In this document: in pieces, positions 16,676 through 43,211 of the stretch
Position numbering within the stretch: the stretch's first letter is position 1
Layout of the letters: the number at the start of each line of letters is the position of its first letter
Source of the DNA: Candidatus Woesearchaeota archaeon
GTDB lineage: Archaea; Nanobdellota; Nanobdellia; SCGC-AAA011-G17; GW2011-AR17
Length of the DNA: 43,211 bases
Direction: 5' to 3'
Assembly (NCBI GenBank): GCA_964343245.1
Contig: CAYFIU010000001.1
Span: forward strand, 1 to 43,211
Notes under the pieces: generated by a model
The model's database searches: none
What the model was told of the DNA's origin: nothing
The model's input: only the letters and a program-made list of their open reading frames with translations
Translations under genes and position numbers: made by a program

Positions 16676-17881
16676 ATGCCTAAACTAAAAAGAGAGCTGG
16701 GATTATTTAGAGTAACACTTGCAGGTGTTGGTGTGATTCTTGGTGCAGGTATTTATGCTTTAATTGGCGTTGCAGCAGGTAAGGCAGGTAACGCAACATG
16801 GTTAGCATTTCTCATTTCAGCATTCATTGCACTCTTCACAGGATTAAGTTATGCAGAACTCTCTTCAATGTTCAGAGGAGACTCAGGTGAATACCACTAT
16901 GTCACAAAAGCACTTAACAAAAAGTTCGCCTGGTTCATTGGAATAAGTGTAATTATGGCTTCAGTTATAACTTGCGCAACAGTTTCTCTGGGTTTTGCAG
17001 GTTACTTCACTTCACTCTTATCTTTACCTTTCATACTAGCAACAGTTTTAGTTCTAGCTTTAATGGCAACAATAAACTTTCTTGGAATTAAAGAGTCAAG
17101 CTGGTTCAACGCAGTTGCAACATTCATTGAATTCACAGGTTTGGTTCTAATCATAATTTTTGGGATTAGTCATATTGGTTCTGTAAACTATTTAGAAATG
17201 CCAAATGGTTTCTTTGGTGTGTTCAGTTCAGCAGCACTAATCTTCTTTGCTTTCCTAGGCTTTGAAAACATAATAAAACTTTCAGAAGAAACAAAAAACC
17301 CACAAAAAACAATTCCAAAAGCAATCCTACTTTCAATTGCAATAACTTCAGTACTTTATGTTTTAGTTGCAATATCAGCAGTCAGTGTAGTTGGTTGGGA
17401 CGCGCTATCTCAAAGTGTAGCACCTTTAGCTTTAGTTGCACAAACAGCACTTGGCACTTTATCTGGTGTTGTCTTAGCAATCATTGCTTTGTTTTCAACT
17501 TCAAATACAATACTAGTTTCAATGTTAACATCTTCAAGACAAGTTTATGGTATGGCAAAAGAAAAAGGTTTACCAAAAGTGTTTGCATCAGTGCATGAGA
17601 ACACAAGGACACCTTGGCTAGCAATAATCCTAGTAATGGTTCTAGCAATGCTGTTCTCGCTTATTGGCGAGATAGAAACAGTTGCAAGCATAACAAACCT
17701 ATTCTTGTTCATTACTTTTGGCTCTGTTAACTTGAGTCTAATGATTCTTCGTTACAAAATGCCAAAAAGAAAAAGGTACTTCACTTGCCCTGGTAGAATT
17801 GGTAAACTTGCTTTGATACCTCTGTTTGGTTTCTTAAGTTCAATTGTAATGATAGTGTTTATTCTGATTAATCTATTATAG
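16676..17881 (+). CDS. Amino acid/polyamine permease (APC superfamily)
   Basis: 401 aa, about 11-12 TM helices. N-terminal 'GVGVILGAGIYALIG' and 'FLGFENI..LSEETKNP.K.IP' motifs are typical of APC transporters. Confidence 0.85.
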   Translation: MPKLKRELGLFRVTLAGVGVILGAGIYALIGVAAGKAGNATWLAFLISAFIALFTGLSYAELSSMFRGDSGEYHYVTKALNKKFAWFIGISVIMASVITCATVSLGFAGYFTSLLSLPFILATVLVLALMATINFLGIKESSWFNAVATFIEFTGLVLIIIFGISHIGSVNYLEMPNGFFGVFSSAALIFFAFLGFENIIKLSEETKNPQKTIPKAILLSIAITSVLYVLVAISAVSVVGWDALSQSVAPLALVAQTALGTLSGVVLAIIALFSTSNTILVSMLTSSRQVYGMAKEKGLPKVFASVHENTRTPWLAIILVMVLAMLFSLIGEIETVASITNLFLFITFGSVNLSLMILRYKMPKRKRYFTCPGRIGKLALIPLFGFLSSIVMIVFILINLL

Positions 17882-18083: not shown

Positions 18084-19850
18084 ATGACAAGAGTAGCAAT
18101 TGTAAAGAGATCAAAGTGTAATCCTACTAAGTGTAACTATCTTTGCATAAAGCTCTGCCCAGTTAACAGGACAGGTGGAGAATGTATAATTAAAGCTGAA
18201 GATACAAAGCCTTACATAAACGAAGACCTCTGTAATGGCTGTTCGATATGCACAAACAGGTGTCCACTAGAAGCTCTTGACATTGTAAATTTACCAGAAG
18301 CACTAAAAGAAGAACCAATTCACAGGTATGGCAAGAACGCATTCCAACTTTTCAACCTACCAATACCCCAACCAGGCAAAGTTATAGGAATCATTGGTAG
18401 AAATGGAATAGGTAAAACAACAGCTTTGAACATTTTAGCAGGCCACCTAAAACCAAACTTAGGAAACTTTGAAGGTTTTGACAAAGATGCAATTCTAAAA
18501 AGATACTCAACATCACCTTTGGGAGACTTTTTCAAAAAGCTTTACAATAACAAAATTAAACTAGCATACAAGCCACAAAGAGTTGAACAAATTCCTGAAA
18601 CTTTTGATGGAAAAGTTAAAGATTTACTAAAAAAAGTTGATGAAAAAGGCAAACTAAAAGAATACACAGAACTTTTAGAAATTGATAAGATTCTAGATTC
18701 CAATGTTAAAGAAATTTCAGGTGGTGAACTACAAAGAGTTGCAATTGCAGCAGCAGCACTAAAAGATGCACAAGTAATTTACTTTGACGAACCATCTTCA
18801 TACTTGGACATCAAACAAAGATTAAAAGTTGCACAGTTCATAAGATCTTTGGCAGACAAAAACACTGCAGTTATCGTCGTGGAACACGACTTGATCACAA
18901 TGGACTACATGGCAGACCTAATCCACATTGTTTATGGTAAGCCAGGTGTGTATGGTGTAATCTCAGGCCTGAAATCAGGCAAACCAGGTATCAACACTTA
19001 CTTGTCAGGGTTCTTAAGAGAAGAAAACATGCGATTCAGGGACAAAGAAATTAAGTTTGGAACACATGCACATGGTGCAGAGTTAGAAACTGAAGAAATT
19101 GCAGAGTGGCCAAAGATGAAAAAGAAACTAGGCAGTTTCAACCTAGACATTGACCAAGGTTACATCAAAGAGCATCAAGTTTTAGGTATTTTAGGTTCAA
19201 ATGGTATTGGTAAAACAAGTTTCATGAAAATTTTAGCAGGTGAAATCAAACCAGACAACACAAAAGTAGATTTGAAATTAAAAATTTCCTACAAACCACA
19301 ATATTTAAAATCAGAATCAGAAGAAACAGTTGAACAGTTACTAAAGAAACAAGCACAAGACTATAACACAAAATCCTACAAAGCAATGATAGTTCAGCCT
19401 CTAGAAATCAACCACATTTTACAAAAACAAATAAAGACCTTGTCAGGTGGTGAACTTCAAAGAGTCTCAATCGCACTTTGCTTATCAAAAGAGTGTGATT
19501 TAATATTAATGGACGAACCATCAGCTTACCTTGACATAGAGCAAAGGCTGACTCTAGCAAAAACAATTAACAAAGTTATTGAAGTAAAAGAATGTTCAGC
19601 TTTAATTATTGATCACGACTTAGTTTTCATGGATTCCTTATCACAAGGGTTGTTGGTGTTTGAAGGTGAAGCAGCAGTTAAGGGTGTGTTACACAAACCA
19701 TTAACTATGGAAGAGGGAATGAACCAGTTGCTAACAGAGTTAAAGATTACAATGCGAAGAGATGAAGAGAATCAAAGGCCAAGAATTAATAAATTAGACT
19801 CGCAGATGGACAAAAAGCAAAAAAAAGAGAACAAGTATTATTATTCTTAA
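18084..19850 (+). CDS. ABCE1 / RNase L inhibitor-type ribosome recycling ATPase
   Basis: N-terminal 2x[4Fe-4S] cysteine clusters (CNPTKCNYLCIKLCP; CNGCSICTNRCP). Two ABC cassettes (GRNGIGKTT/LSGGELQR and GSNGIGKTS/LSGGELQR). Confidence 0.95.
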   Translation: MTRVAIVKRSKCNPTKCNYLCIKLCPVNRTGGECIIKAEDTKPYINEDLCNGCSICTNRCPLEALDIVNLPEALKEEPIHRYGKNAFQLFNLPIPQPGKVIGIIGRNGIGKTTALNILAGHLKPNLGNFEGFDKDAILKRYSTSPLGDFFKKLYNNKIKLAYKPQRVEQIPETFDGKVKDLLKKVDEKGKLKEYTELLEIDKILDSNVKEISGGELQRVAIAAAALKDAQVIYFDEPSSYLDIKQRLKVAQFIRSLADKNTAVIVVEHDLITMDYMADLIHIVYGKPGVYGVISGLKSGKPGINTYLSGFLREENMRFRDKEIKFGTHAHGAELETEEIAEWPKMKKKLGSFNLDIDQGYIKEHQVLGILGSNGIGKTSFMKILAGEIKPDNTKVDLKLKISYKPQYLKSESEETVEQLLKKQAQDYNTKSYKAMIVQPLEINHILQKQIKTLSGGELQRVSIALCLSKECDLILMDEPSAYLDIEQRLTLAKTINKVIEVKECSALIIDHDLVFMDSLSQGLLVFEGEAAVKGVLHKPLTMEEGMNQLLTELKITMRRDEENQRPRINKLDSQMDKKQKKENKYYYS

Positions 19851-22053: not shown

Positions 22054-22407
22054 ATGGAAGATAAAAAAATTCAAGAAATGGCTTTCCAAGCAGTAGAGCA
22101 TGCTAAGACTTCTGGTAAAATTAAAAAAGGCGCTAACGAAGCAACCAAAGCTGCTGAGAAAGGTACAGCAAAATTAGTTATTGTAGCTAAAGACACAAAC
22201 CCTAAAGAGGTAGTAATGCACATCGGACCTTTGTGTAAAGAAAAAGATGTTCCTTTTGTTGAAGTTGACAAAAAAGAAGAGTTAGGAACAGCAGCAGGTA
22301 TTCCTGTTTCAACAACAGCAGTTGCAATTATACAAGAAGGCGATGCAAAAACCATAATCAAAAGAATTGTAGAGGCATTGAAGAGTGGCGAAGGACAGAA
22401 AGAATAA
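22054..22407 (+). CDS. rpl7ae: Ribosomal protein L7Ae (kink-turn binding)
   Basis: '[32 protein letters not shown]...LC.EK.VPF..V..K.ELG.AAG'. SD GGAGGT lies 7 nt upstream and a TATA lies about 54 nt upstream. Confidence 0.95.
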
Positions 22408-25322: not shown

Positions 25323-27146
25323 ATGAGTAAAATAATTGGTATTGATTTAGGTACAACTAATTCAGCAGTTGCTGTTCTAGAAGGTGGAAAGCCATCTATA
25401 ATCCCTTCAGCAGAAGGAGGTAGAACAGTTCCGAGCGTTGTAAGCATTAAAGGAGATGATATTATTGTAGGAGAAGTTGCAAAAAGACAAGCAGTTGCAA
25501 ATCCTAACCACACAATTAGAAGTATTAAAAGAATTATGGGAACAAAAGAAAAAGTTACAGTTGATGGTAAAGATTACACTCCAGAACAAGTTTCAGCAAT
25601 GGTCTTAAAAAAATTAAAGAAAGATGCAGAAGCTTACTTAGGTTCAAAAGTGACAAAGGCTGTAATCACAGTGCCAGCATATTTCAATGATGCACAAAGA
25701 CAAGCTACAAAAGATGCAGGCGAGATTGCAGGACTGGAAGTTGAAAGAATTATTAACGAACCAACTGCAGCATCACTAGCTTATGGGTTAGATAAAGGTG
25801 AATCACAAACAGTTCTAGTTTTCGACTTAGGTGGGGGAACATTTGATGTTTCAATATTAGAACTTGGTGATGGTGTTTTCGAAGTAAAATCAACATCAGG
25901 CGATAACAAACTAGGTGGAGATGATTGGGATGATAAGATTATTAATTATCTAGCTGATGAATTCAAAAAAGAAAATGGAATTGATCTAAGAGAAGATGCA
26001 GCTGCACACCAAAGATTAAAGGATGCAGCAGAAAAAGCAAAGATTGAACTGTCAACAGGAATGCAAACAAGCATCAACTTACCTTATGTAACAGCTGATG
26101 CATCAGGTCCAAAACACCTAGACATGACTTTGACAAGAGCAAAGTTCAATGATCTAACAAAAGATTTAGTTGAAAGAGTAATTGCACCTGTTAAAAATGC
26201 ATTAAAAGATGCAGACATGACTCCAAATGATCTAAACAAAGTTCTTTTGGTTGGTGGTTCAACAAGAATTCCTATTGTACAAGAAAAAGTAAAAGAATTG
26301 TTACAAAAAGATGGAGACAAAGGTATCAACCCTGACGAATGTGTAGCTTTAGGAGCATCTATTCAAGGTGGAGTGCTTGGTGGTGAAGTTAAAGATGTTT
26401 TATTGTTAGATGTGACCCCATTAACATTAGGTATTGAAACACTTGGTGGAGTAATGACACAGTTAATTGAAAGGAATACTACAATTCCATCTAAAAAGTC
26501 TCAAGTTTTTTCAACAGCAGCAGATAACCAACCTGCAGTAAACATTAATGTTTTGCAGGGTGAAAGGTCAATGGCTGCTGATAACACCTCCCTCGGTAGG
26601 TTCGATCTAATGGGGATACCTCCAGCACCAAGAGGAGTTCCTCAGATCGAAGTTACATTTGATATTGATGCAAATGGAATTGTAAATGTTTCAGCAAAAG
26701 ATCTTGGAACAGGTAAAGAACAAAAGATCACAGTAACTGGTGGTTCAGGTTTAAACAAAGAAGAGATTGAAAAGATGGTCAAGGATGCAGAAAAACATGC
26801 AGATGCTGACAAAAAGAAAAAAGAATCAATCGAAGTAAAGAACCAAGCAGATACAGTGATCAACACAACTGAAAAGATGTTGGATGAGCACAAAGACAAG
26901 GTTGACAAAGAAACAAAAGAAAAGATTGAAAAAGAGTTAAATGCTCTTAAAGAAACAGTTAAAACTGATGATACAGAAAAGATCAAGGCTCAATTGGACA
27001 AGTTAAACAAAGTTGCAATGGAGCTTGGTCAAAAAATGTATCAACAAGCTCAGCAAGAACAAGCAAAGCCTAAAGAAGAAAAGGCTGATGAAAAAGTTGT
27101 TGATGCAGAGTTTGAAGAAGAGAAAAAAGAAGAAAAGAAAGAGTAA
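25323..27146 (+). CDS. dnaK: Hsp70 chaperone DnaK
   Basis: '[10 protein letters not shown]', '[10 protein letters not shown]' and '[11 protein letters not shown]' signatures. 607 aa. Confidence 0.97.
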
Positions 27147-27171
27147 TCTTTCTTTCCTTTAACACCATACC

Positions 27172-28257
27172 ATGACAAAAGACTATTATGACACCTTAGG
27201 TGTAGATAAGAGTGCAAGCAAAGAAGAAATAAAAAAAGCGTACAAAAAGCTTGCAAAGAAGTATCATCCTGATTTGAATAAAGATAATCCTGAATCTGAA
27301 CAGAAGTTTAAAGAGGTTAATGAAGCTTATTCAGCTCTTTCTGATGATAATAAGAGAGCAAACTATGATAGGTTCGGAACAGCAGACGACCAAAGGCATG
27401 GTGGTTTTGGCCAGGGTGGTTTCCAAGGAGGCTTTGGTGGTTTCTCAGATATTTTTGAAGGTTTTTTTGACATGGGTGGTAGAAGAAGACAGAGAAGGGG
27501 TAGAGATTTGAAAGTTGAAGTTGAAATTTCTTTCATGGACGCCTGTTTTGGTAAAGAAAAAACAGTTTCAGTTACTAAATTAGATAAGTGTAATGTTTGT
27601 CATGGTAAGGGTGGGACAGGCACTAAAACCTGTTCCACCTGTAATGGTTCTGGTCAAGTAACAAAAGCATTCAGAACACCTTTTGGTTCTATACAACAAA
27701 GAGCAACATGTTCACACTGTCAGGGTATGGGCCAAACAGTAGAACATCCTTGTAAAGAATGTAATGGTTCTGGTAAAGAGAAAAAAAATAAAAAAGTTAA
27801 AGCTAAAATCCCAGCAGGTGTACACGATGGTACAACCTTAAGGTTAACTGGTGAAGGAGAGTATGACCAAGTACCAGGAGATTTATTCGTTGAAATCTTT
27901 GTAACACCTCACAAATACTTTGAAAGAAAAGGTGATGATATTTATTTGGAATATCCAGTAAGCTTTTCACAGGCAACACTTGGTGATAAAGTTGAAGTGC
28001 CAACAATCCATGGTGATGTTAAAATGAAAATCCCAGCAGGAACAGAATCTGGCACTATCATGAGATTAAAAGGCAAAGGTGTTGAAAACATTCAGGGCTA
28101 TGGCCAAGGTGATCAACATGTTAAGGTTCAGTTGAAAACACCTCAAAAACTTTCTAAAAAACAAAAAGATCTGTTTAAACAGTTAGCTAAGGAAAACAAA
28201 GAGAAACTTAAGATAGAAAAAGGTTTCTTTGAAAAATTAAAAGATAGTTTTTATTAG
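27172..28257 (+). CDS. dnaJ: Hsp40 co-chaperone DnaJ (type I)
   Basis: J-domain with 'KKYHPDLN', G/F-rich linker, four CxxCxGxG zinc-finger repeats. Confidence 0.95.
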
Positions 28258-28775: not shown

Positions 28776-30491
28776 ATGATCAGACAACCTTTAGTAGTAG
28801 TAATGGGAAACATCGATTCTGGGAAAACCAGGACACTAGATACTATTAGAAGGACTGCTGTTGTTGACTCAGAAGCAGGCGCAATCACACAAATGATCTC
28901 TTCTTCAGCAATTTCATTCAAAACAATTCAAAAAATTGCAGGAGATTTTCTAAAAAGTCAAAAAATCACAATTCCTGGTTTAATTTTCTTAGATACACCA
29001 GGCCATGCAGCATTTTCAAACATGAGAAAGAGGGGTGGAAACCTTGCAGACATTGCAATCTTAATAATTAACATTAATGAAGGTATTAAACCACAAACAA
29101 AAGAATGTATTGAAATATTAAAAAAATACAAAACACCTTTTTTAATTTCACTGAACAAGATTGACTTATTCCCTGGCTGGCAAAAAACAGATGAGAAAAC
29201 AATCCTTGGCATGATTGATAAACAGTCTGACAGCGTTAAACAAAAAATTGAAAGCAGGTTATATGAAATTGTTGGAGAACTTTACAAGTACGGTTTCCAA
29301 GCAGAAAGGTTTGACAGAGTTGATGATTATACAAAACAAATTGCAATGGTTCCAGTTTCAGGAAAGTTTGGTGAGGGTATTCCTGAACTCTTAGCAGTAC
29401 TTATTGGCATAGCACAAAAGTTTTTAGAAAAAGAGTTAGACATTAATGCAGACGCACTAGGTAAAGGAACAGTTCTAGAAGTTAAAGATGAAAAAGGTGT
29501 GGGTGTTGCGCTGGATACAATTGTTTACGAAGGCAAGGTTAAAGTTAATGACACAATTGTTGTTGGAGGATTACATGAACCAGTTGTAACAAAGATTAGA
29601 GGGTTGTTCTTACCAGATGAAAAAGGTAAATACAAAGCAGTAAAAGAAGTAGTTGGTGCAGCAGGAGTAAAAATAGTAGCACCTGGAATCAAAGAAGTTG
29701 TATCAGGTATGCCTTTGTATGTTGAAAACAAGGATGTAGAGCAAGCAAAAGAAAAGATCATGGAAGAGGTTGAAGAGGTTGTGATTGAAACAGAGAAAGA
29801 GGGTGTCATAGTTAAAGCAGATTCACTGGGTTCATTAGAAGCAGCAGTTGGCCTTTTACAAGAAAAAGAAATCCCTATCAAAAAAGCATCAGTTGGTAAC
29901 ATCACAAAAAAAGATGTTGCAGATGCAGAATCAAACAAAGATGAATTAAACAGAGTTATCATGTGTTTTAACACAGGTGGTGAAGCTCCAGAATCAATGA
30001 AAGTTCTAAAAAGTCCAGTTATTTATCAATTAATTGAACAATTAGAGAAGTTTAGGTTTGAAAAGAAAAGAGAAATTGAAGCAAGAGCTTTGAAAGATAC
30101 TGCACAGCCAGCAAAAGTTAAAGTTATTCGTGGTTGCATGTTCAGGCAAAGTAACCCTTGCGTAGTTGGTGTAGAAGTGATAAAAGGTACACTTACATCT
30201 GACACTGAACTGATTAAAATGGATGGTTCAAAAGTGGGCCATGTTAAAACTGTTGAACTTGAGAAGGAATCAGTTAAAAAAGCTGAGAAAGGAAAGCAGG
30301 TTGCAATTTCGTTGCCAGGAGTCACTGGTGGCAGACAGATTAACGAAGAAGATATTTTGTTAGTCGATATTAATGAAAATGAGTTCAGGACAATGAAAAG
30401 GTTAAAAAAACTTTTAACACCTGACCAAATCGAACTTCTAAAAGAAATAGCTGAGATTAAAAGAAAAGAAAATGCTCTTTGGGGCGTTTAG
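28776..30491 (+). CDS. infB: Translation initiation factor aIF5B (IF2 homologue)
   Basis: GTPase motifs 'GNIDSGKT' (variant of GHVDHGKT), 'DTPGH' and 'NKID', followed by the beta-barrel and C-terminal domains. 571 aa. Confidence 0.9.
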   Translation: MIRQPLVVVMGNIDSGKTRTLDTIRRTAVVDSEAGAITQMISSSAISFKTIQKIAGDFLKSQKITIPGLIFLDTPGHAAFSNMRKRGGNLADIAILIININEGIKPQTKECIEILKKYKTPFLISLNKIDLFPGWQKTDEKTILGMIDKQSDSVKQKIESRLYEIVGELYKYGFQAERFDRVDDYTKQIAMVPVSGKFGEGIPELLAVLIGIAQKFLEKELDINADALGKGTVLEVKDEKGVGVALDTIVYEGKVKVNDTIVVGGLHEPVVTKIRGLFLPDEKGKYKAVKEVVGAAGVKIVAPGIKEVVSGMPLYVENKDVEQAKEKIMEEVEEVVIETEKEGVIVKADSLGSLEAAVGLLQEKEIPIKKASVGNITKKDVADAESNKDELNRVIMCFNTGGEAPESMKVLKSPVIYQLIEQLEKFRFEKKREIEARALKDTAQPAKVKVIRGCMFRQSNPCVVGVEVIKGTLTSDTELIKMDGSKVGHVKTVELEKESVKKAEKGKQVAISLPGVTGGRQINEEDILLVDINENEFRTMKRLKKLLTPDQIELLKEIAEIKRKENALWGV

Positions 30492-31144: not shown

Positions 31145-31543
31145 ATGGCAGAGACAAAGTTTGTAATAAACGACACTAAGTCTGGAAAGAGCTATCAAAA
31201 AGCCTTAGAGGACAGTACTCTAGAAGGCAAAAAGGTAGGCGAAAAAGTGTCAGGAGACTTTCTTGGATTAGAAGGATATGAACTTCAGGTTACTGGAGGC
31301 AGTGATTTAGCAGGATTTCCAATGAGGAAAGAGATTGATGGCACTGGAAGAAAAAAAGGTCTTTTCAGTGGCGGTGTCGGAGTAAAGATTAAGAGAGATG
31401 GCATGCGAAGAAGAAAGACAGTTTGCAAAAATACAATCTCTGCTGATATTGTTCAAGTGAATTTGAAAGTAGTTAAAGAAGGATCAAAAAAACTTGAAGA
31501 AGTCTTCCCAAAAAAGGAAGAAGAGCAACCTAAAGCTGAATAA
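31145..31543 (+). CDS. rps6e: Ribosomal protein S6e
   Basis: 'ELQVTGGSDLAGFPMRKEIDGTGRKK....GVG' is the S6e signature. Confidence 0.9.
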   Translation: MAETKFVINDTKSGKSYQKALEDSTLEGKKVGEKVSGDFLGLEGYELQVTGGSDLAGFPMRKEIDGTGRKKGLFSGGVGVKIKRDGMRRRKTVCKNTISADIVQVNLKVVKEGSKKLEEVFPKKEEEQPKAE

Positions 31544-31944: not shown

Positions 31945-33162
31945 ATGTCTAAACAACCTGAGATAAACATTGGATTAGTTGGTCACGTTGATCATGGTAA
32001 AACAACATTAGTGTCCAGACTAACAGGAAAGTGGACAGATACACATTCTGAAGAACAAAAGAAAGGTATCACTATTAGGTTAGGCTATGCAAATGCGACT
32101 TTTTACAAGTGTGAAAAGTGTGATTACTATGGCCCAAAAGACAAATGTCCAAAATGCAAAGCAAAAACAAAAGAAATCAAAACAGTTTCATTTGTTGACG
32201 CGCCAGGTCACGAAACTTTGATGGCAACAATGCTTTCAGGTTCAGCAATAATGGATGCAGCACTTTTAATGGTTGCAGCAGATGAAAAATGTCCACAACC
32301 ACAAACAAAAGAGCATTTGATGGCTTTACAAATTGCAGACATAAAAAATATAATCATTGTACAGAACAAAATAGATCTTGTTTCAACAGAAGATGCAATG
32401 AAAAATTATAACCAAATTAAAAACTTTACAAAAGGAACTATTGCAGAAAATGCACCTATACTTCCTGTTTCAGCACAACTTGACGTTAACATTGATCTAC
32501 TAATAAAAGCAATTTATGAAAACTTCAAAGCACCAAAGAGGAACTTGAAAAAAGATCCAATCATGTTTATAGCAAGAAGCTTTGACATTAACAAACCTGG
32601 TGCAACATACAAAAATGTTGTAGGTGGAGTTCTTGGTGGAGCTTTAACTCAAGGTCAACTAAAAATTGGAGATAAAGTAGAAATCAAACCTGGAAGGAAA
32701 GTAGAGAAAGAAGGTAAAACTTTATGGGAACCTATTCAAACAGAGATAACAGGCATAAAATCTGACAGAGACACATTAAAAGAAGCAGTCCCTGGAGGTA
32801 GCATAGCCTTACTAACAAAATTAGACCCTTCAATGGCAAAATCAGATTCTTTAACAGGAAGTTTAGTTGGACACCCTGATAAACTCCCACCATCACACTA
32901 TGAAATGGAACTTGTACCCCACTTACTTGAAAGGGTAGTTGGAAGCGACAAAGAATTAGAAGTTGAACCTATTAAAAAAGGTGAAAACCTGATGCTTAAT
33001 GTTAACGCATCAACAACAGTTGGTTTAGTAACAGATATTAGAAAGAATTCTTTCAAAGCAAAATTAAAAATCCCTATCTGCGCAGACAAAGGCGATAAGA
33101 TAACAATCTCAAGGCTTGTCGGGCACAGATTTAGATTGATTGGTTACTGTTCTTTAAAATAA
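31945..33162 (+). CDS. Translation initiation factor aIF2 gamma subunit
   Basis: 'NIGLVGHVDHGKTTL', 'DAPGHE' and 'QNKIDL', plus the zinc knuckle CEKCDYYGPKDKCPKCK. 405 aa. Confidence 0.95.
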   Translation: MSKQPEINIGLVGHVDHGKTTLVSRLTGKWTDTHSEEQKKGITIRLGYANATFYKCEKCDYYGPKDKCPKCKAKTKEIKTVSFVDAPGHETLMATMLSGSAIMDAALLMVAADEKCPQPQTKEHLMALQIADIKNIIIVQNKIDLVSTEDAMKNYNQIKNFTKGTIAENAPILPVSAQLDVNIDLLIKAIYENFKAPKRNLKKDPIMFIARSFDINKPGATYKNVVGGVLGGALTQGQLKIGDKVEIKPGRKVEKEGKTLWEPIQTEITGIKSDRDTLKEAVPGGSIALLTKLDPSMAKSDSLTGSLVGHPDKLPPSHYEMELVPHLLERVVGSDKELEVEPIKKGENLMLNVNASTTVGLVTDIRKNSFKAKLKIPICADKGDKITISRLVGHRFRLIGYCSLK

Positions 33163-36661: not shown

Positions 36662-37834
36662 ATGATACTTAAAATGGCAAATAAAGATCAAATATTAGCT
36701 GAGCATAAAGAGCAAGTAAGGAGGAATAGGATGAGACCGACATTATTTTGGAAGATTACTACTATAGTATTCTTAATATTATTTATAGGCGCAATATACT
36801 TCAATGGTATGCCAAGTTTTAGCAATGACGTTGGGCAAGATGAAGCTGTACAGACAGCAGTTGCTTTTATTAACGAAAACATGCTAATGGGCCTTGCAAG
36901 TGCAGAAGTGCAAGAAGTATCAGAAGATAAAGGTATGTACAAGATTGACTTGTTAATCACAAGCGATAGCTTGGACTACACCGAAGAATTCACATCATAT
37001 GTTACAAAAGATGGGAAACTACTTTTCCCAACAGCAGTTGACTTAGGCGAACTTCAAGTTCCAGTTGAGGAAGACCCTGTTGTAGAGGATCCTGTTGATG
37101 AAGATCCATTAGCAGAAATTGATTACTCAGGAGATCCAGTTCTAGGAAACCCTGAAGCAACAGTAACAATTGTTGAATACTCAGACTTCGAATGTCCATT
37201 CTGTAGCAATGCATACTGGACAATGAGGCTAATTGAAGAAGATTACGCAGACAGTGTTAAAATTATCTTTAAACAATTCCCACTAAGCTTCCACGCAAAC
37301 GCACAAAAAGCAGCAGAAGCATCTGAATGCGCATTTGACCAGGACATGTTCTGGGAATACCACAACATGCTATTCGAGAACCAGGAAGCACTAAGTGTTG
37401 ACGATCTAAAACAATATGCAGTAGATCTTGGACTTAATACAGAACAATTTAATACATGTTTAGACTCTGGAGAAAAAGCAGATGAGGTTGCACAAGATAT
37501 GGAAGATGGATCAGCACTAGGAGTAACAGGTACACCAGCTTTCTTCATAAATGGCCAAAGCCTTGTAGGTGCACAACCATATGAAGCATTCCAAGCAATC
37601 ATCGATGCAGAACTAGCAACTGAAGAAGAACCTGCTGAAGAGGAACCAGTTGAGGAAGACCCTGTTGTAGAGGATCCTGTTGATGAAGAACCTGTAGAAG
37701 AGGAACCTGCTGAAGAAGAACCAGCTGAGGAAGAGCCTGCTGAAGAACCTACAGGCGAAGAGTGCAGTTCTACAGAAGATTGTCCAGAAAACAGCATTTG
37801 TTTCAGTGGAAATTGTATAGAAATACAAAACTAG
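36662..37834 (+). CDS. Membrane-anchored DsbA-like thiol:disulfide oxidoreductase with acidic Pro/Glu repeats and a Cys-rich C-terminal knot
   Basis: N-terminal TM helix. 'VEYSDFECPFCSNAY' is the CxxC active site. DsbA-fold landmarks ('FPLSFHANA', 'GVTGTPAFFING'). (EEPA/EEPV)n tail. C-terminal CSSTEDCPENSICFSGNC. Confidence 0.75.
   Translation: MILKMANKDQILAEHKEQVRRNRMRPTLFWKITTIVFLILFIGAIYFNGMPSFSNDVGQDEAVQTAVAFINENMLMGLASAEVQEVSEDKGMYKIDLLITSDSLDYTEEFTSYVTKDGKLLFPTAVDLGELQVPVEEDPVVEDPVDEDPLAEIDYSGDPVLGNPEATVTIVEYSDFECPFCSNAYWTMRLIEEDYADSVKIIFKQFPLSFHANAQKAAEASECAFDQDMFWEYHNMLFENQEALSVDDLKQYAVDLGLNTEQFNTCLDSGEKADEVAQDMEDGSALGVTGTPAFFINGQSLVGAQPYEAFQAIIDAELATEEEPAEEEPVEEDPVVEDPVDEEPVEEEPAEEEPAEEEPAEEPTGEECSSTEDCPENSICFSGNCIEIQN
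37061..37104 (+). repeat. Copy 1 of a perfect 44-nt direct repeat inside the DsbA-like gene
   Basis: ccagttgaggaagaccctgttgtagaggatcctgttgatgaaga is identical to 37646-37689. It encodes PVEEDPVVEDPVDE. Confidence 0.9.
37646..37689 (+). repeat. Copy 2 of the perfect 44-nt direct repeat
   Basis: Identical 44-mer, 585 nt downstream of copy 1. The two copies bracket the thioredoxin-fold domain. Confidence 0.9.
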
Positions 37835-39759
37835 TTTAGAAGGTTACCAACATAAACCTTCTTTACATTTTTTATTCTTTTTATTCTTTCAATTATATTC
37901 TGTAAATGTTCTAAACCTGTTGTTTCCATTGTAAAAGAGCATTCAACATTATCTTGCCCTCTTGGCTGTGCATTAGCAGATTTGATTGTTGTATGAAGAG
38001 CAACAAGCGTGTTAAGTATCTCAGCAAACAGACCAACTCTATTCAAAGCATCAACTTTTATTTCAACAAGAGAACCAATGTTAGCTGTCCACTCAACATT
38101 AACCTTTTTCTTTCTTGACCCTAACTTAATCTTCTTAAGTTGTGAACAAGCATGTTTATGAATAGTAACCTTGCCATTGCTTGTGGCATAACCAACTATC
38201 TCTTCACCAGGCAAAGGAGAACAACACTTTGCAATTAATATTTCAGGATTAATTATACCTTCAACATCAATGATCCATGCTTCTAACTCTTTTTTCACAT
38301 CACCAGTTTGTTTAATGGTTTTAACAGGAATGTTTTGCACAGCACGCAAATACTTTTTTATTCTGGATTGTGCTCGAGAAGTTCTAGCAATCTTTAACCA
38401 AGATCTTGAAGGGCGCTGGTTTTTAGCAGTAACAATTTCAACCTTGTCACCATTTTTCAAAGTTGTTCGTAAAGGAGCAAAATGTCCATTAATCTTTCCA
38501 GCAATTGTTCTGTCACCAACATCAGAGTGAACAGCATAAGCAAAATCAAGAACAGTTGCACCAGTTGGCAACTCAATAACTCTTCCTTTTGGTGTAAATG
38601 TAAAAATTTCCCTTTCAAAGAAATCAACATGCAACATCTCCATAAATTCTGTTGCATTTTCACTTTCTTTCTGCCATTCCATAACTTGCTTCATCCAGTT
38701 TAACTTTTCATCAAACTTTTTATCACCTGCAACACCTTTGTATCTCCAGTGTGCAGCAATCCCATCCTCAGCAACCTGATGCATGTCTTGGGTTCTAACT
38801 TGAATCTCAACAGGCTTTTTGTCAGGACCAATAACAACCATGTGCAATGACTGATACCTGTTAGACTTGGGTGTAGCAATATAATCATCAAACTCTTTTG
38901 GAATAGGAGTCCACAAACTATGAACAACACCCATCACCTCATAACACTCTTTAGGATATTTAACAATAATTCTTATCCCAGCAATATCATAAATATCAGA
39001 GAAAGGTTTATCTTTTCTTAACATTTTTTTGTAAATACTATACAAGTGTTTTGGCCTACCACTAATGTCAGCTTCAATTGACTCTCCTTTCAACTGCTCC
39101 CTAAGTGTTTTCTTAACTTTTTCAATTTGTATTTCTCTTTCTTTCTGACTTTGTTGCAGCTTTCTTTTCAAATCTTTGTAAACCTCAGGCTCAAGGTACT
39201 TGAAAGCTAAATCCTCCAATTCCCACTTAATACTAGCAATGCCTAACTTGTAAGCAATAGGGGCATAAATGTTCAGAACCTCTCTAGCAATCCTTTCACA
39301 CTTTTCTTGCCTAAAAACACCAACAGTTCTCATGTTGTGCAATTTGTCAGCAAGTTTGATAAAAATAACTCTAACATCCCTTATTGAAGCAAGGATAACT
39401 TTTCTAACAGTCTCAGCAGTGTACTCTTCAAAACTCATCTCTCTAAGCTTTGTAATCTTTGTAACACCTTCAATAATATTAGCAATCTCTTCCCCAAATT
39501 CAGAGACAATATCTTCTTTAATAACCTCAGTATCCTCAACAACATCATGCAATAAAGCAGCAGAAATAGTGGTAGCTCCTAACTTATGCTCAGCTAAAAT
39601 ATAAGCAACACTCAAAGGATGTTGGATAAAAAGCTCTCCTGAGGACCTTCTTTGCGTACCATGATGCTTCTTTGCAAACTGGTAAGCTTTCCTAATTAGA
39701 TCAAAGTCAGCTTTCTTATCATAACCTTCAATTTTTCTGATAATAGTCCTTAGTTGCAT
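37831..39759 (-). CDS. Long bifunctional RelA/SpoT homologue ((p)ppGpp synthetase/hydrolase: HD-SYNTH-TGS-ZFD-ACT)
   Basis: HD motif 'HGTQRRSSGELFIQHPLSVA...LLHDVVEDT'. Synthetase 'RPKHLYSIYKKM...DIAGIRIIV...YQSLHMVV...VEIQVRTQDMH..AE.GIAAHWRYK'. TGS 'FTPKGRVIELPTGATVLDFAYAVHSDVG'. CCSPLPGE zinc motif and ACT-like C-terminus. Start chosen at Met21 (complement 39757-39759) from TATA spacing. Confidence 0.9.
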   Translation of the reverse strand: MQLRTIIRKIEGYDKKADFDLIRKAYQFAKKHHGTQRRSSGELFIQHPLSVAYILAEHKLGATTISAALLHDVVEDTEVIKEDIVSEFGEEIANIIEGVTKITKLREMSFEEYTAETVRKVILASIRDVRVIFIKLADKLHNMRTVGVFRQEKCERIAREVLNIYAPIAYKLGIASIKWELEDLAFKYLEPEVYKDLKRKLQQSQKEREIQIEKVKKTLREQLKGESIEADISGRPKHLYSIYKKMLRKDKPFSDIYDIAGIRIIVKYPKECYEVMGVVHSLWTPIPKEFDDYIATPKSNRYQSLHMVVIGPDKKPVEIQVRTQDMHQVAEDGIAAHWRYKGVAGDKKFDEKLNWMKQVMEWQKESENATEFMEMLHVDFFEREIFTFTPKGRVIELPTGATVLDFAYAVHSDVGDRTIAGKINGHFAPLRTTLKNGDKVEIVTAKNQRPSRSWLKIARTSRAQSRIKKYLRAVQNIPVKTIKQTGDVKKELEAWIIDVEGIINPEILIAKCCSPLPGEEIVGYATSNGKVTIHKHACSQLKKIKLGSRKKKVNVEWTANIGSLVEIKVDALNRVGLFAEILNTLVALHTTIKSANAQPRGQDNVECSFTMETTGLEHLQNIIERIKRIKNVKKVYVGNLLN

Positions 39760-39783
39760 GGTTTTTAAGAATAAGTAAGAGAG

Positions 39784-39794
39784 ATTTATAAAAG
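39784..39794. promoter_or_regulatory. Shared near-palindromic TATA element between the divergent RSH and E1-like genes
   Basis: atttataaaag is centred about 30 nt from the RSH ATG (leaderless). It is about 50 nt from the E1-like ATG, whose short leader carries SD-like GAAGGAAAAGG. Confidence 0.45.
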
Positions 39795-39838
39795 TTGTCA
39801 TGGAAAGACTTTTAAACAATTGCTGAAGGAAAAGGTAT

Positions 39839-40639
39839 ATGAAAATAGCAATTATTGGCTGTGGAACAACTGGAAATCAAATTATCCCTAAACTAAGAGA
39901 ACATGAGCTCTTAATTATAGACAGGGACCTTGTTGAGGAAAAGAATCTGTCAAGACAAACACAGTTTTCTTCAGACGATGTTGGCAGGCCAAAAGCACAA
40001 GTTTTAGGAGAGAAATTTAAGATTAACTATAAAGTTTTAGACCTAGACTGTACAAATGTTAATATTCTAAATTTTGATCTAGTCATTGACTGCACTGACA
40101 ATTTAATCACTAGATTTTTAATAAATGATTACTGTAAAAAAGAAAACATCCCTTGGATTTACACAGGTGTTGTTGGCGACAGAGGAAGAGTTCTTGGGTT
40201 CACTGGTGATTACTGTTTTAGATGTTTGTTTAAAGAGGTAAAAGGTTTGGACACTTGCACTTCTACAGGTGTTGATTTAGAAGTTGCTGGACAAGTTGGC
40301 AAAATTGCAGTTGAAGAAGCTGAAAGGATTTTGGCTGGAAAAAAACCTAGAGGCTTGTGGGCAGGGGAATGGATCGCAGTTAAGAAAGACAAAGATTGTT
40401 TAGCTTGCAATGGCACCTATGAATACTTGGATAAGAAAGAAGACATTGTAAAGTTTTGTGGCTCTTCAAGGTACCAGTTCAAAGGCAACTTTGACTTTGA
40501 AAACATTAAGAAAAGGTTAGGTGGCTCTGGTGAATACTTTGTATACAAAGACTTTTCCATCTTTAAGGATAGAGTTTTAGTCAAAGCTGACTCTGAAAAA
40601 GAAGCAAAGAAAAAATTTAACGAAGTTATCGGGGCCTGA
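39839..40639 (+). CDS. E1-like adenylyltransferase (ThiF/MoeB/UbaA family)
   Basis: 'IAIIGCGTTGN', 'DRDLVEEKNLSRQ', 'GRPKA' and 'DCTDNLITRFLIND', plus zinc pairs CFRC...CLAC. Confidence 0.8.
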   Translation: MKIAIIGCGTTGNQIIPKLREHELLIIDRDLVEEKNLSRQTQFSSDDVGRPKAQVLGEKFKINYKVLDLDCTNVNILNFDLVIDCTDNLITRFLINDYCKKENIPWIYTGVVGDRGRVLGFTGDYCFRCLFKEVKGLDTCTSTGVDLEVAGQVGKIAVEEAERILAGKKPRGLWAGEWIAVKKDKDCLACNGTYEYLDKKEDIVKFCGSSRYQFKGNFDFENIKKRLGGSGEYFVYKDFSIFKDRVLVKADSEKEAKKKFNEVIGA

Positions 40640-43211
40640 TATCTTTTCTAATCTGTTCAAGGCTAGTTCTGATTTCTCTAAGAAGATTATACATTTGGTT
40701 TGCTAATCGCATCCAGTTTTCTAGCATTTTGTAAAAGTCAGTAATTTTATAAGTATCCCAACCATGCATAGCAAGTATACCATCAATTCTAGATCCATTT
40801 TCCAAGAACCACGATAAATATGTTTTATTTGCTAGAATTGTTCTAATATCTACTCTAGTTAAAGCCACATTGTGAGTTTTTTCAAAGTGTTCTAATAATA
40901 ACTTCAACTCTGCACGCATGTCCTTTCGTGATTTAATTAGATCCAATAAACCTCTCCATAGCCGAGTAATTCTACTCTTAAGGGCTCTAGTATCTTGCAA
41001 TCCACTTAATTGTGAATGCACTTCTAAAAGTTCTACGATTTGGTTATTGAATCTTTTAAGAGTTTTTGGATCAATTTTATTTCTTATTTTTGGATTACCA
41101 AGTTCAAGATTTAATTCTGTGATCCTTCTTCCTAAAGCAAAATAAGAATCTAACTCTCCACTATTAATAAGACCATATAGGAAAGTACCAATACTTGATT
41201 CTTTAGCAAACCAACCTGTCTTAGCTGGTCTTTTAATATATTTGATCATATTAATAATTTTTTCAATGTCTTCATCAATTGGGGGCTCTGGTTCATCTTC
41301 ACCTACTATAACCACATCTTTAACAATGAACAAACCTTTATCATCTTGTTTACCTAGTGCAGTGAAATGGAAAGCAATTTCACAGTCAATATTGTTTTCA
41401 AAATTAGGAGGCCTCCATACAACACTACCTCTCTGACTAGTATGCCCATTAGGAACACCTGGTTGCTCTTCTAAAGGAATATTAGTAAACTTTTGATTCT
41501 CACCAAATCTATAAGCAATGTCCAAAGGTGTACTAAAACCTAAAGCATCTACACCTTCTCCTTTAATTTCCCATTCAAGTTTAATTTCACTTCGAATCTC
41601 CTGATGATCTGTACTAGGATTAATAATATTAACTGTAACTTCAGGAGTTCCCTTTACTAAGGTGCCCTCTTGAAGAGTCAAATCTTTATATTCTCTTGGT
41701 GTTGTAAATGAAAGTGTATACTGGTAAGTGCCAGGCGCTAAATCACTCAGATCAAAAGGATAATAAGCCCATTTTCCATCAATCTCATCTGTTCTTCCTA
41801 CTTTAGTTTGTCCAGCAATAACTAATGCGATATTAACTCCTTTAACAGGTCCACTTTCGCTTGATGCACCTACTGCTAGTATGTTTGGACCAGAAAAAAA
41901 TTGGTGCCTGATCCTTATGTCTCTCTCTTCTTTTCCAGGAATAATAAAGCTAAATTGTTTAGAGATATTTAATTCTGTTTTTCGATCCATTGCTTGAACT
42001 TCAATTATACATTCAGTATCGTCTTCAACTTCAGGAACTTTGTCCCAGGAAATCTGTCCTCTCAAACCACTACCAGGAATTGAAGCAAATCTACTACCAC
42101 CAACATTTATTCTTATTGATATAATTGGATTGACGCTATTATCAGTGAACCCAGTAACTTCCCATTTAATGTTTTGGGGATTTGTTATTGGTTCACCTTC
42201 AACAGGACTATGTAATATAATCTCATGAGGGTAAGCACTAATTTTAAAGGCCTTACTTTCAGCTTGCCCTAGTTCATTATTATCTTGATCAAACGCAGCA
42301 ACTAGCAAAAATGCTTCATCTGCTTCTTTGTCTGGCACAGTCCATTCAACACTTCTTGCTGTTCCTATTTCACTATTTGCAACTTCCCAGCCAGTATTTT
42401 TTGTTGCGAAATACAGAACATAATAACTAACATCTGTAGGATCATTTACATCCCATGTAACTGTAATCTTTTTCCCAACATGAACATTATCTTTATCAGT
42501 AGGAACATTTGTAAACCAAATCTTAAAAGCTCCATCTGTAGGACCAACAGTGATTTTACCAGTAAGCATTCTTGGAGCATCATAAACATCATTGCCCTCT
42601 ACATTTACAGTAAAAGAGTAGGGTTCTTCCCTAGCAGTTAAACCTGTAATAGGAATTTCAGCTCTAGAAGGGACATTATGCTCTCCTCTTTCAGTTTGTT
42701 TTTCATAATCCTCACCATTACAGTTAACCTTTACAGCAAGTTCATTAACTCCTCCTCCACTATCATCAACACTAACAATAAGATTAACAGACTCACCTTG
42801 GTTTATATTAAATTCATACTGGTTAAGCTCAACATTCAACATTCCTTGAGTTCCTTTGATATCAAATGGTTTAGGACTATCATCCTTACCAAGCTCATCA
42901 TCTTTATCAAAAGCAGTAATCCTTAAGAAACACCTATGTCCAATAGCATTCCTTGGAACATTCCAATGTGTTGTTCTTTTCCCTCCTCTCACACTCTTAA
43001 TCATTTCAAAACTATGCTTATTATCATAAGAAACTTCAATTTGAAACTTTGTAACGCTAGCAGCAGGATCAACAACATCCCAAGCTAAATCCACTTTTTT
43101 TTGTGGCTCAATAGTTTCATCAGAAGGAACCTCTGTCCACTTGACAACTTCACCAGCTTTTGTAATAGTTATTGTTCCATCAAGTGTAATGCCTCCATTA
43201 TCAACACCAAC
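40626..43211 (-). CDS. Giant beta-sandwich repeat protein with C-terminal all-helical domain (N-terminus off the right edge)
   Basis: The frame is open to the window end, upstream of the track's first Met (…VGVDNGGITLDGTITITKAGEVVKWTEVPSDETIEPQKKVDLAWDV…). At least 5 modules of about 100 aa share a 'I.(V/L).W(D/E)V ... (V/H)W.VP ... AFD' pattern. The last 215 aa or so are helical with no TM segment. Confidence 0.7.
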   Translation of the reverse strand, partial: VGVDNGGITLDGTITITKAGEVVKWTEVPSDETIEPQKKVDLAWDVVDPAASVTKFQIEVSYDNKHSFEMIKSVRGGKRTTHWNVPRNAIGHRCFLRITAFDKDDELGKDDSPKPFDIKGTQGMLNVELNQYEFNINQGESVNLIVSVDDSGGGVNELAVKVNCNGEDYEKQTERGEHNVPSRAEIPITGLTAREEPYSFTVNVEGNDVYDAPRMLTGKITVGPTDGAFKIWFTNVPTDKDNVHVGKKITVTWDVNDPTDVSYYVLYFATKNTGWEVANSEIGTARSVEWTVPDKEADEAFLLVAAFDQDNNELGQAESKAFKISAYPHEIILHSPVEGEPITNPQNIKWEVTGFTDNSVNPIISIRINVGGSRFASIPGSGLRGQISWDKVPEVEDDTECIIEVQAMDRKTELNISKQFSFIIPGKEERDIRIRHQFFSGPNILAVGASSESGPVKGVNIALVIAGQTKVGRTDEIDGKWAYYPFDLSDLAPGTYQYTLSFTTPREYKDLTLQEGTLVKGTPEVTVNIINPSTDHQEIRSEIKLEWEIKGEGVDALGFSTPLDIAYRFGENQKFTNIPLEEQPGVPNGHTSQRGSVVWRPPNFENNIDCEIAFHFTALGKQDDKGLFIVKDVVIVGEDEPEPPIDEDIEKIINMIKYIKRPAKTGWFAKESSIGTFLYGLINSGELDSYFALGRRITELNLELGNPKIRNKIDPKTLKRFNNQIVELLEVHSQLSGLQDTRALKSRITRLWRGLLDLIKSRKDMRAELKLLLEHFEKTHNVALTRVDIRTILANKTYLSWFLENGSRIDGILAMHGWDTYKITDFYKMLENWMRLANQMYNLLREIRTSLEQIRKDIRPR

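Follow-up and report, generated by a model that had tools for sequence, protein, structure and literature searches.

A short-form long RelA/SpoT homologue, very probably native and vertically inherited, in a Woesearchaeota-type archaeon

Long RelA/SpoT homologues (RSHs), the enzymes that make and break guanosine tetra- and pentaphosphate, (p)ppGpp, typically form a bacterial protein family, and the locus described here raises the question of what such a gene is doing among the translation genes of an archaeon. It lies in a 43,211-nt stretch of DNA from a Candidatus Woesearchaeota archaeon (hereafter the window, to which all coordinates refer), which is contig 1 of a 651-kb, 70-contig, 76%-complete genome. 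We consider it probable, as the best explanation of the data, that the gene is native to this Woesearchaeota-type DPANN archaeon (GTDB phylum Nanoarchaeota), has been vertically inherited and encodes a bifunctional (p)ppGpp synthetase/hydrolase of the Rel type. Residue conservation shows that the predicted parts for both the synthesis and the hydrolysis of (p)ppGpp are all present and under purifying selection.

The RSH gene occupies positions 37831..39759 on the minus strand and encodes 642 amino acids plus the stop codon, as established from the list of open reading frames (ORFs), the translation, the orthologue alignment and the NCBIfam model TIGR00691. The ORF itself runs over 37831-39819; the start was placed at ATG 39759 because orthologues align from residue 1 to residue 642 of the protein. 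Two longer versions, starting at TTG 39819 and ATG 39801, were ruled out, since the starts of the orthologues coincide with ATG 39759. A preliminary description of this DNA had set the end of the gene at 39794, which would take in a TATA-like box and has to be moved to that ATG. Its claim that a complete-length long RSH gene is found here is borne out by the score against TIGR00691 (spoT_relA; 703.1 bits, with a cut-off of 499.2) and by the presence of all the catalytic and zinc-binding residues that were checked. The equivalog models for RelA (NF008124, 447 bits) and SpoT (NF008303, 547.6 bits) are matched under their cut-offs of 728 and 947, respectively, and the protein, as far as profile scores can tell, lies outside the proteobacterial RelA and SpoT equivalogs. 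A sequence search of the PDB returned mycobacterial Rel (5e-151), Bacillus subtilis Rel (1.6e-146) and Escherichia coli RelA (3e-122).

The domains follow one another along the minus strand in the order known from bacterial long RSHs. The HD-type (p)ppGpp hydrolase domain (residues 25-174; 39238..39687; Pfam HD_4, 1e-43) has an intact motif, with H47, H71-D72, E75-D76, D138 and N142 all kept. In the synthetase domain (residues 234-341; 38737..39060; Pfam RelA_SpoT, 7.5e-45) we find R235-x-K237-xxx-S241-xxx-K245, D258-xx-G-x-R263, Y302-x-S-x-H306 and E318-I-Q320-V-R-T323, together with an EFDD (EXDD) motif at residues 289-292. There follow a TGS domain with His411 (residues 385-444; 38428..38607; Pfam TGS, 3.9e-21), which also gives a weak Pfam match to ThiS (β-grasp), and a remnant of the α-helical (AH) domain (residues 445-507; 38239..38427), recognized from the spacer length, the alignment gaps and the AlphaFold model. 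The zinc-finger/ribosome-intersubunit (ZFD/RIS) domain (residues 508-545; 38125..38238) carries the ligands C512, C513, H534 and C538, and its family, PF28438 (RelA_RIS), is listed in the precomputed Pfam annotation of an identical protein. The chain ends in an ACT/RRM domain that is net basic (residues 565-636; 37852..38067; Pfam ACT_4, 2.4e-13). All the catalytic and Cys-rich motifs named in the preliminary description could thus be located. Its further statement that the protein has every domain of a bacterial long RSH holds for the HD, synthetase, TGS, zinc-finger and ACT domains and does not hold for the AH domain, which is largely gone. By every sequence criterion except a full AH domain, the protein would be classed as a long RSH.

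The predicted structure agrees with this assignment. An AlphaFold model built with 86 homologues as input (mean predicted local confidence, pLDDT, 77; pTM 0.62) has its best fold matches in ribosome-bound RelA, Rel and full-length SpoT, the top Foldseek match being ribosome-bound RelA (4e-40), and its catalytic half superimposes on Thermus thermophilus Rel with a template-modelling (TM) score of 0.85 at 2.7 Å. In the model, the AH remnant consists of one helix (residues 461-474) followed by a low-confidence linker (residues 481-495), and the ACT domain has a βαββαβ fold. The bacterial bifunctional Rel enzymes (B. subtilis Rel, 6YXA/6HTQ; Mycobacterium tuberculosis/M. smegmatis Rel, 8FR8/5XNX; RelSeq, 1VJ7; T. 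thermophilus Rel, 6S2T) have the same HD-synthetase-TGS-zinc-finger-ACT order, are 45-50% identical to the window RSH over residues 1-475 and share with it the catalytic residues of both sites. Unlike them, the window RSH belongs to an archaeal host, has an AH domain about 73 residues shorter (68 versus 141), ends in a basic ACT region (net charge +5 versus -1.3) and shows EFDD where Rel has RxKD. This EXDD motif is common to E. coli RelA, the ribosome- and tRNA-activated stringent factor (5IQR, 5KPS/5KPV), as are the TGS histidine and the CC..H..C zinc finger, whose contacts with tRNA and ribosome are known from the RelA complexes. RelA, however, has a dead pseudo-hydrolase, whereas the hydrolase motif of the window RSH is intact and its AH domain is truncated.

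These departures from the bacterial pattern are not peculiar to one protein, as was seen when 71 archaeal homologues were compared with 200 bacterial sequences. The spacer between the end of the TGS domain and the CC pair of the zinc finger, 68 residues long in the window RSH, has a median of 68 in the archaeal set (range 57-77, n=71) versus 141 in bacteria (interquartile range 134-148, n=200); what is left of the AH domain, the helix at residues 461-474, corresponds to its first, basic helix. Intermediate spacers of 76-100 residues occur in some bacterial long RSHs, one of which (P0150) stands in a bacterial SecD/DprA context. Summed across the ACT region in a wider sense (residues 546-636, including the linker from the zinc finger), the net charge is +5 in the window RSH and on average +4.7 in the archaeal homologues, against -1.3 in the bacterial ones. 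From its sequences, the archaeal clade can be described as one of "short-form" long RSHs of about 620-660 residues. The EFDD motif is a trait of the window's own family, in which E/QFDD is present in 13 of 13 sequences; most long RSHs have RxKD there, RFKD being found at this position in 113 of the 200 bacterial sequences. This is the charge-reversal motif of Sajish et al., in which RxKD reportedly denotes bifunctional Rel and EXDD monofunctional RelA. Judged by these motifs, the window's family pairs a RelA-type EFDD with an apparently intact hydrolase, which is an unusual combination. In the literature searched, we did not find a description of the AH truncation, of the basic ACT end or of EFDD beside an intact hydrolase.

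Conservation within the archaeal clade is uneven. The synthetase residues R235, K237, K245, D258, Y302, H306, E318 and Q320 are present in all 71 homologues, and R263 in 70 of them. Equally strict are His411 of the TGS domain (71/71, and 199 of the 200 bacterial sequences) and the zinc ligands C512, C513, H534 and C538 (71/71). The hydrolase site, on the other hand, degenerates in about one third of the clade: D72 is kept in 50, E75 in 46 and D76 in 41 of the 71 homologues, and in several proteins (P0124, P0126, P0142 and P0167 among them) the HD and ED residues have been replaced, as in LLHQVLEN or LMHGILNK, next to a perfect synthetase site. On sequence grounds, such proteins look as if they had turned, repeatedly or in particular lineages, into monofunctional enzymes of the RelA kind. 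A strictly conserved synthetase beside a decaying hydrolase indicates that selection acts first of all on synthesis. In the window RSH, both sites are complete; its synthetase is likely to be catalytically competent, and its hydrolase, with slightly less confidence, to be active.

How exceptional is such a gene in an archaeon? The preliminary description had taken it for a sporadic archaeal oddity, and this premise cannot be maintained: long RSHs are both common and vertically inherited in this lineage. A RelA_SpoT match was found in 34 of the 36 genomes of the same GTDB family, nearly always in ORFs of about 640-660 residues, and patchily in the other families of the same order (9/24 genomes). 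Across the phylum, 132 of 301 genomes contain a protein above the TIGR00691 cut-off, all in ORFs of about 600-720 residues. Nearly half of the genomes sampled from this phylum of ultra-small, host-dependent archaea thus keep what appears to be a full-length enzyme for making and breaking (p)ppGpp. A word-index search added over 100 protein clusters, with members of about 625-660 residues at 48-76% identity and several of them on contigs of 0.3-0.8 Mb, and those relatives of the gene that bear names come from Woesearchaeota/Nanoarchaeota metagenome-assembled genomes (MAGs).

The presence of long RSHs in DPANN archaea is, moreover, already published. The passages of Li et al. (2021, mSystems, PMC8407392) that treat this kind of gene, in this same lineage, report RelA/SpoT in 41.7% of Woesearchaeota, 69% of Diapherotrites, 21% of Pacearchaeota and 19% of Nanoarchaeota, figures with which our count of 132/301 agrees, and predict that the DPANN genes were acquired from Bacteria. 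RelA/SpoT is covered there in one sentence, and a domain, motif or clade analysis was not found in those passages of the paper. An earlier survey, which pre-dates these genomes, had found no long RSH in archaea (Atkinson et al. 2011, PMC3153485), and in a review of archaeal second messengers from 2023 (PMC10249747), (p)ppGpp still figures as undescribed in this domain. Our literature search found no paper characterizing archaeal long RSH enzymes. The RSH of this genome is thus new as a member and not as a genomic observation; within its lineage the gene is the rule, not the exception. What the present analysis adds is the AH truncation, the basic ACT end and the EFDD motif, together with the single archaeal clade and the conservation of the synteny.

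The descent of the gene was examined in trees that drew on 60 archaeal loci (26 GTDB families), 4 loci of the candidate phyla radiation (CPR), about 55 bacterial loci of many phyla and 150 representatives at 50% clustering. In a FastTree phylogeny of 271 rows, all short-form sequences fall on one side of a branch with a support of 100; in an IQ-TREE analysis (LG+C20+F+G4 PMSF, 111 rows, 642 columns), a single branch separates 48 archaeal from 63 bacterial rows (SH-aLRT 98). All seven families represented by at least two genomes are monophyletic in the RSH tree, with six changes, which is the minimum, and none of 200 shuffles gave a value as low. A homologue from Candidatus Micrarchaeum, placed after the main tree, also lies on the archaeal side (support 99). 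Short-form members are found in archaeal gene contexts, one beside RadA with inteins and RPA, another beside Trm56, TFIIE and a class I LysRS. As far as the sequences sampled can tell, the archaeal short-form RSHs are nested in no bacterial phylum, are set apart from the bacterial proteins by the deepest supported branch among long RSHs and occur in no fewer than two DPANN phyla (Nanoarchaeota in the GTDB sense and Micrarchaeota).

Read most simply, this pattern goes back to a single ancient origin, in a common ancestor of several DPANN lineages, after which the gene was passed on vertically and often lost. That ancestor would have gained a long RSH once, long ago, from some bacterial lineage, and most of the AH domain would have been lost early in the archaeal history of the protein. 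In the first pattern scan, the non-archaeal matches of highest identity were four RSHs of CPR bacteria (Patescibacteria), 41-45% identical over residues 6-477, whose hosts are, like the window archaeon, ultra-small and host-dependent. These proteins, from Magasanikbacteria, Parcubacteria and Howlettbacteria, are about 495-504 residues long and consist of the HD, synthetase and TGS domains only, with neither zinc finger nor ACT domain, and in both trees they lie within the bacteria and not as a sister group of the archaeal clade. CPR bacteria were ruled out as the donor on these grounds.

What the enzyme might do can be outlined from its bacterial counterparts. It would use ATP to pyrophosphorylate GDP or GTP, and would also hydrolyse the product, with the C-terminal half setting the switch between the two activities. 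The TGS domain keeps the histidine that in bacteria recognizes uncharged tRNA at its 3' CCA end, the zinc finger and the basic ACT domain would anchor the protein to the ribosome, and a flexible linker would stand in for the rigid helical domain. The C-terminal half seems to have kept its role in reading the tRNA and the ribosome, because the TGS histidine and the zinc finger are strictly conserved at overall identities of 35-50%. The elements contacted by RelA (H38, uS19, uL16 and the CCA end of the tRNA) are universal and not specific to bacteria, and the archaeal ribosome is therefore a possible partner in principle. Activation of the window RSH by the ribosome and uncharged tRNA is nevertheless suggested here only tentatively. 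If the enzyme is active, alarmone signaling would be extended to the third domain of life, and a stringent factor would be shown to work without most of its helical domain.

A native RSH could also act independently of the ribosome, in the manner of SpoT, with the TGS, zinc-finger and ACT domains serving for autoinhibition or for the binding of ligands or partners (e.g., amino acids at the ACT domain) and the loss of the AH domain marking that A-site tRNA sensing has been given up. We regard this as possible, if somewhat doubtful. It would account for the short spacer (about 68 residues) that all 71 archaeal homologues have between TGS domain and zinc finger, for the predicted disorder of the linker at residues 481-495 and for a charge of the ACT region unlike that of bacteria, and the top query-normalized whole-chain TM score of the model (0.54) is to free full-length SpoT (7qpr). 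His411 and the four zinc ligands, however, are as invariant as would be expected if contacts with tRNA and the ribosome were still selected; a basic ACT end would suit RNA binding; and shortened AH regions of 76-100 residues are found in some bacterial long RSHs too.

Several points weigh against the reading of the window RSH as a native, vertically inherited, bifunctional enzyme of Rel type with a ribosome-linked mechanism. The AH domain, which in bacteria extends alongside the ribosome-bound tRNA, appears from the alignment and the model to be cut to one helix and a linker, and an exact copy of the bacterial docking geometry is therefore impossible. The EFDD of monofunctional RelA is here predicted to accompany an intact HD domain. 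The mechanism itself rests on sequence and on predicted structure. We infer the acquisition from bacteria, with its direction and its date, from a tree that is unrooted and a bacterial sample biased to best hits. Finally, neither a guanylate kinase (Guanylate_kin, PF00625) nor a hypoxanthine-guanine phosphoribosyltransferase (HGPRTase, TIGR01203) was matched in this genome, a provisional result given its 76% completeness; in control genomes, the bacterial-type Gmk is absent from archaea generally.

Purine-salvage targets of the Firmicute type are accordingly unlikely, with no match to Gmk or HGPRT in the genome, and for the same reason we infer that the translational GTPases (aIF5B, aEF1A, aEF2 and aIF2γ) are the likeliest targets of (p)ppGpp, ahead of the purine salvage enzymes. 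An amino-acid permease is encoded in the window at 16676-17881, and one may speculate that, in an amino-acid-importing cell, uncharged tRNA would give a read-out of the amino-acid supply of the host.

A bolder version of the ribosome-linked reading would join two proposals, namely that long RSHs pre-date the bacterial radiation, being ancestral to both domains or exchanged very early, and that these archaea have a genuine ribosome-coupled stringent response carried by a minimized Rel, with a flexible tether in place of the helical domain and a basic ACT domain re-tuned to the archaeal ribosome. Taken jointly, we consider the two unlikely.

Less probable still is a protein that acts mainly as a hydrolase, for example clearing alarmones taken up from the host cell, or that makes another nucleotide (pGpp or (p)ppApp). 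The hydrolase site is intact in the window RSH and no other alarmone gene was found in the genome, as would suit such a role; however, the synthetase residues are the strictest part of the protein, with eight sites unchanged in 71/71 homologues, whereas roughly one clade member in three has a degenerate hydrolase site, and the guanine-stacking Tyr302 is kept. The check for other alarmone genes that had been proposed for this genome was run, and no second gene with an HD_4 or RelA_SpoT domain, be it a small alarmone synthetase or a small alarmone hydrolase, was found in the 76% of the genome that is represented. Many relatives of this archaeon have, for their part, ORFs of about 340-385 residues in which a RelA_SpoT synthetase domain is matched (E about 1e-17 to 1e-22), as well as ORFs of about 190-230 residues that match the HD part only of TIGR00691. 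Small alarmone synthetases and small alarmone hydrolases, respectively, may be encoded there.

The surroundings of the gene agree with native descent. The archaeal genes that the preliminary description had named around it were all located in the window: aIF2γ (31945-33162), aIF5B (28776-30491), S6e (31145-31543), L7Ae (22054-22407) and ABCE1/RLI (18084-19850). The order surface protein, ThiF-like gene, RSH gene (these two divergent), DsbA-like gene, CCG, FAD_binding_4, orf97, NTP-transferase, aIF2γ is conserved, whole or largely, at five loci from independent MAGs, in one of which (L013) the RSH is 76% identical to that of the window at the protein level and in the others (L014, L016, L018 and L020) about 60%. 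Because this order recurs in independent MAGs, a chimeric join at the RSH locus is excluded. The GC content of the RSH gene is 0.354 (0.272 at third codon positions) in a window of 0.341, and its codon usage correlates with that of the other genes (r = 0.84) within the range of its neighbours. Upstream of the gene, a TATA-like box, TTTTATAAAT, lies at 39784..39793 on the minus strand and ends 25 nt upstream of ATG 39759; its position would leave the mRNA with a very short leader, or with none. Of the 15 orthologue upstream regions inspected, most have a similar A/T box at a distance of 24-35 nt from the ATG.

Domestication rather than contamination, as argued in the preliminary description, is thus supported by the native composition, the synteny across independent MAGs and the recurring TATA-like box, and the window RSH is almost certainly native and vertically inherited. 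It is extremely improbable that assembly or binning joined a bacterial fragment to the archaeal DNA by mistake, or that the gene arrived from bacteria very recently: such an origin would suit a family that is typically bacterial and the 41-45% identity to the CPR proteins of the first scan, but the same gene order in at least five MAGs, the native codon usage, orthologues that are near-universal in the family, a deep archaeal clade that follows taxonomy and the bacterial nesting of the CPR proteins, about 500 residues long and devoid of zinc finger and ACT domain, all contradict it. Chimerism of the contig and recent transfer were both ruled out by synteny, composition and distribution. As a clean, intact representative with native signals, the window RSH is well suited to test whether any archaeon uses (p)ppGpp.

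The two immediate neighbours of the RSH gene take part in the conserved order to different degrees. Divergent from it, a gene for a ThiF/E1-like adenylyltransferase of 266 residues (39839..40639, plus strand; Pfam ThiF, 1e-31) has its best NCBIfam matches in ThiF, MoeB and the SAMP-activating E1, all under their cut-offs. It is adjacent and divergent to the RSH gene at seven other loci (L003, L004, L005, L011, L014, L017 and L019), and a ThiF-like match lies about 1 kb from the RSH start at L018. The pairing is kept in most members of the family but is absent from the closest relative, L013. The ThiF-like gene is thus a conserved neighbour of the RSH gene, a pairing seen as gene order alone. 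On the other side, a DsbA-like thioredoxin-fold gene (36662..37834, plus strand; Pfam Thioredoxin_4 and DSBA) converges with the RSH gene and is part of the synteny at the five loci named above; the 3' ends of the two genes overlap by 4 nt (37831-37834), including the RSH stop codon, which leaves no space for separate terminators.

Two further features of the window may be recorded. Beyond the ThiF-like gene, a repeat protein of 822 residues or longer is encoded at 40626-43094 on the minus strand, with only a weak match to Kre9/KNH-like Ig domains, and its C-terminal part of about 200 residues is kept beside the RSH locus in six relatives (L010, L012, L014, L015, L016 and L019). Amid the archaeal translation genes, at 25323-28257 on the plus strand, lies a pair of bacterial-type stress genes, encoding DnaK (Hsp70, 607 residues) and DnaJ (361 residues).

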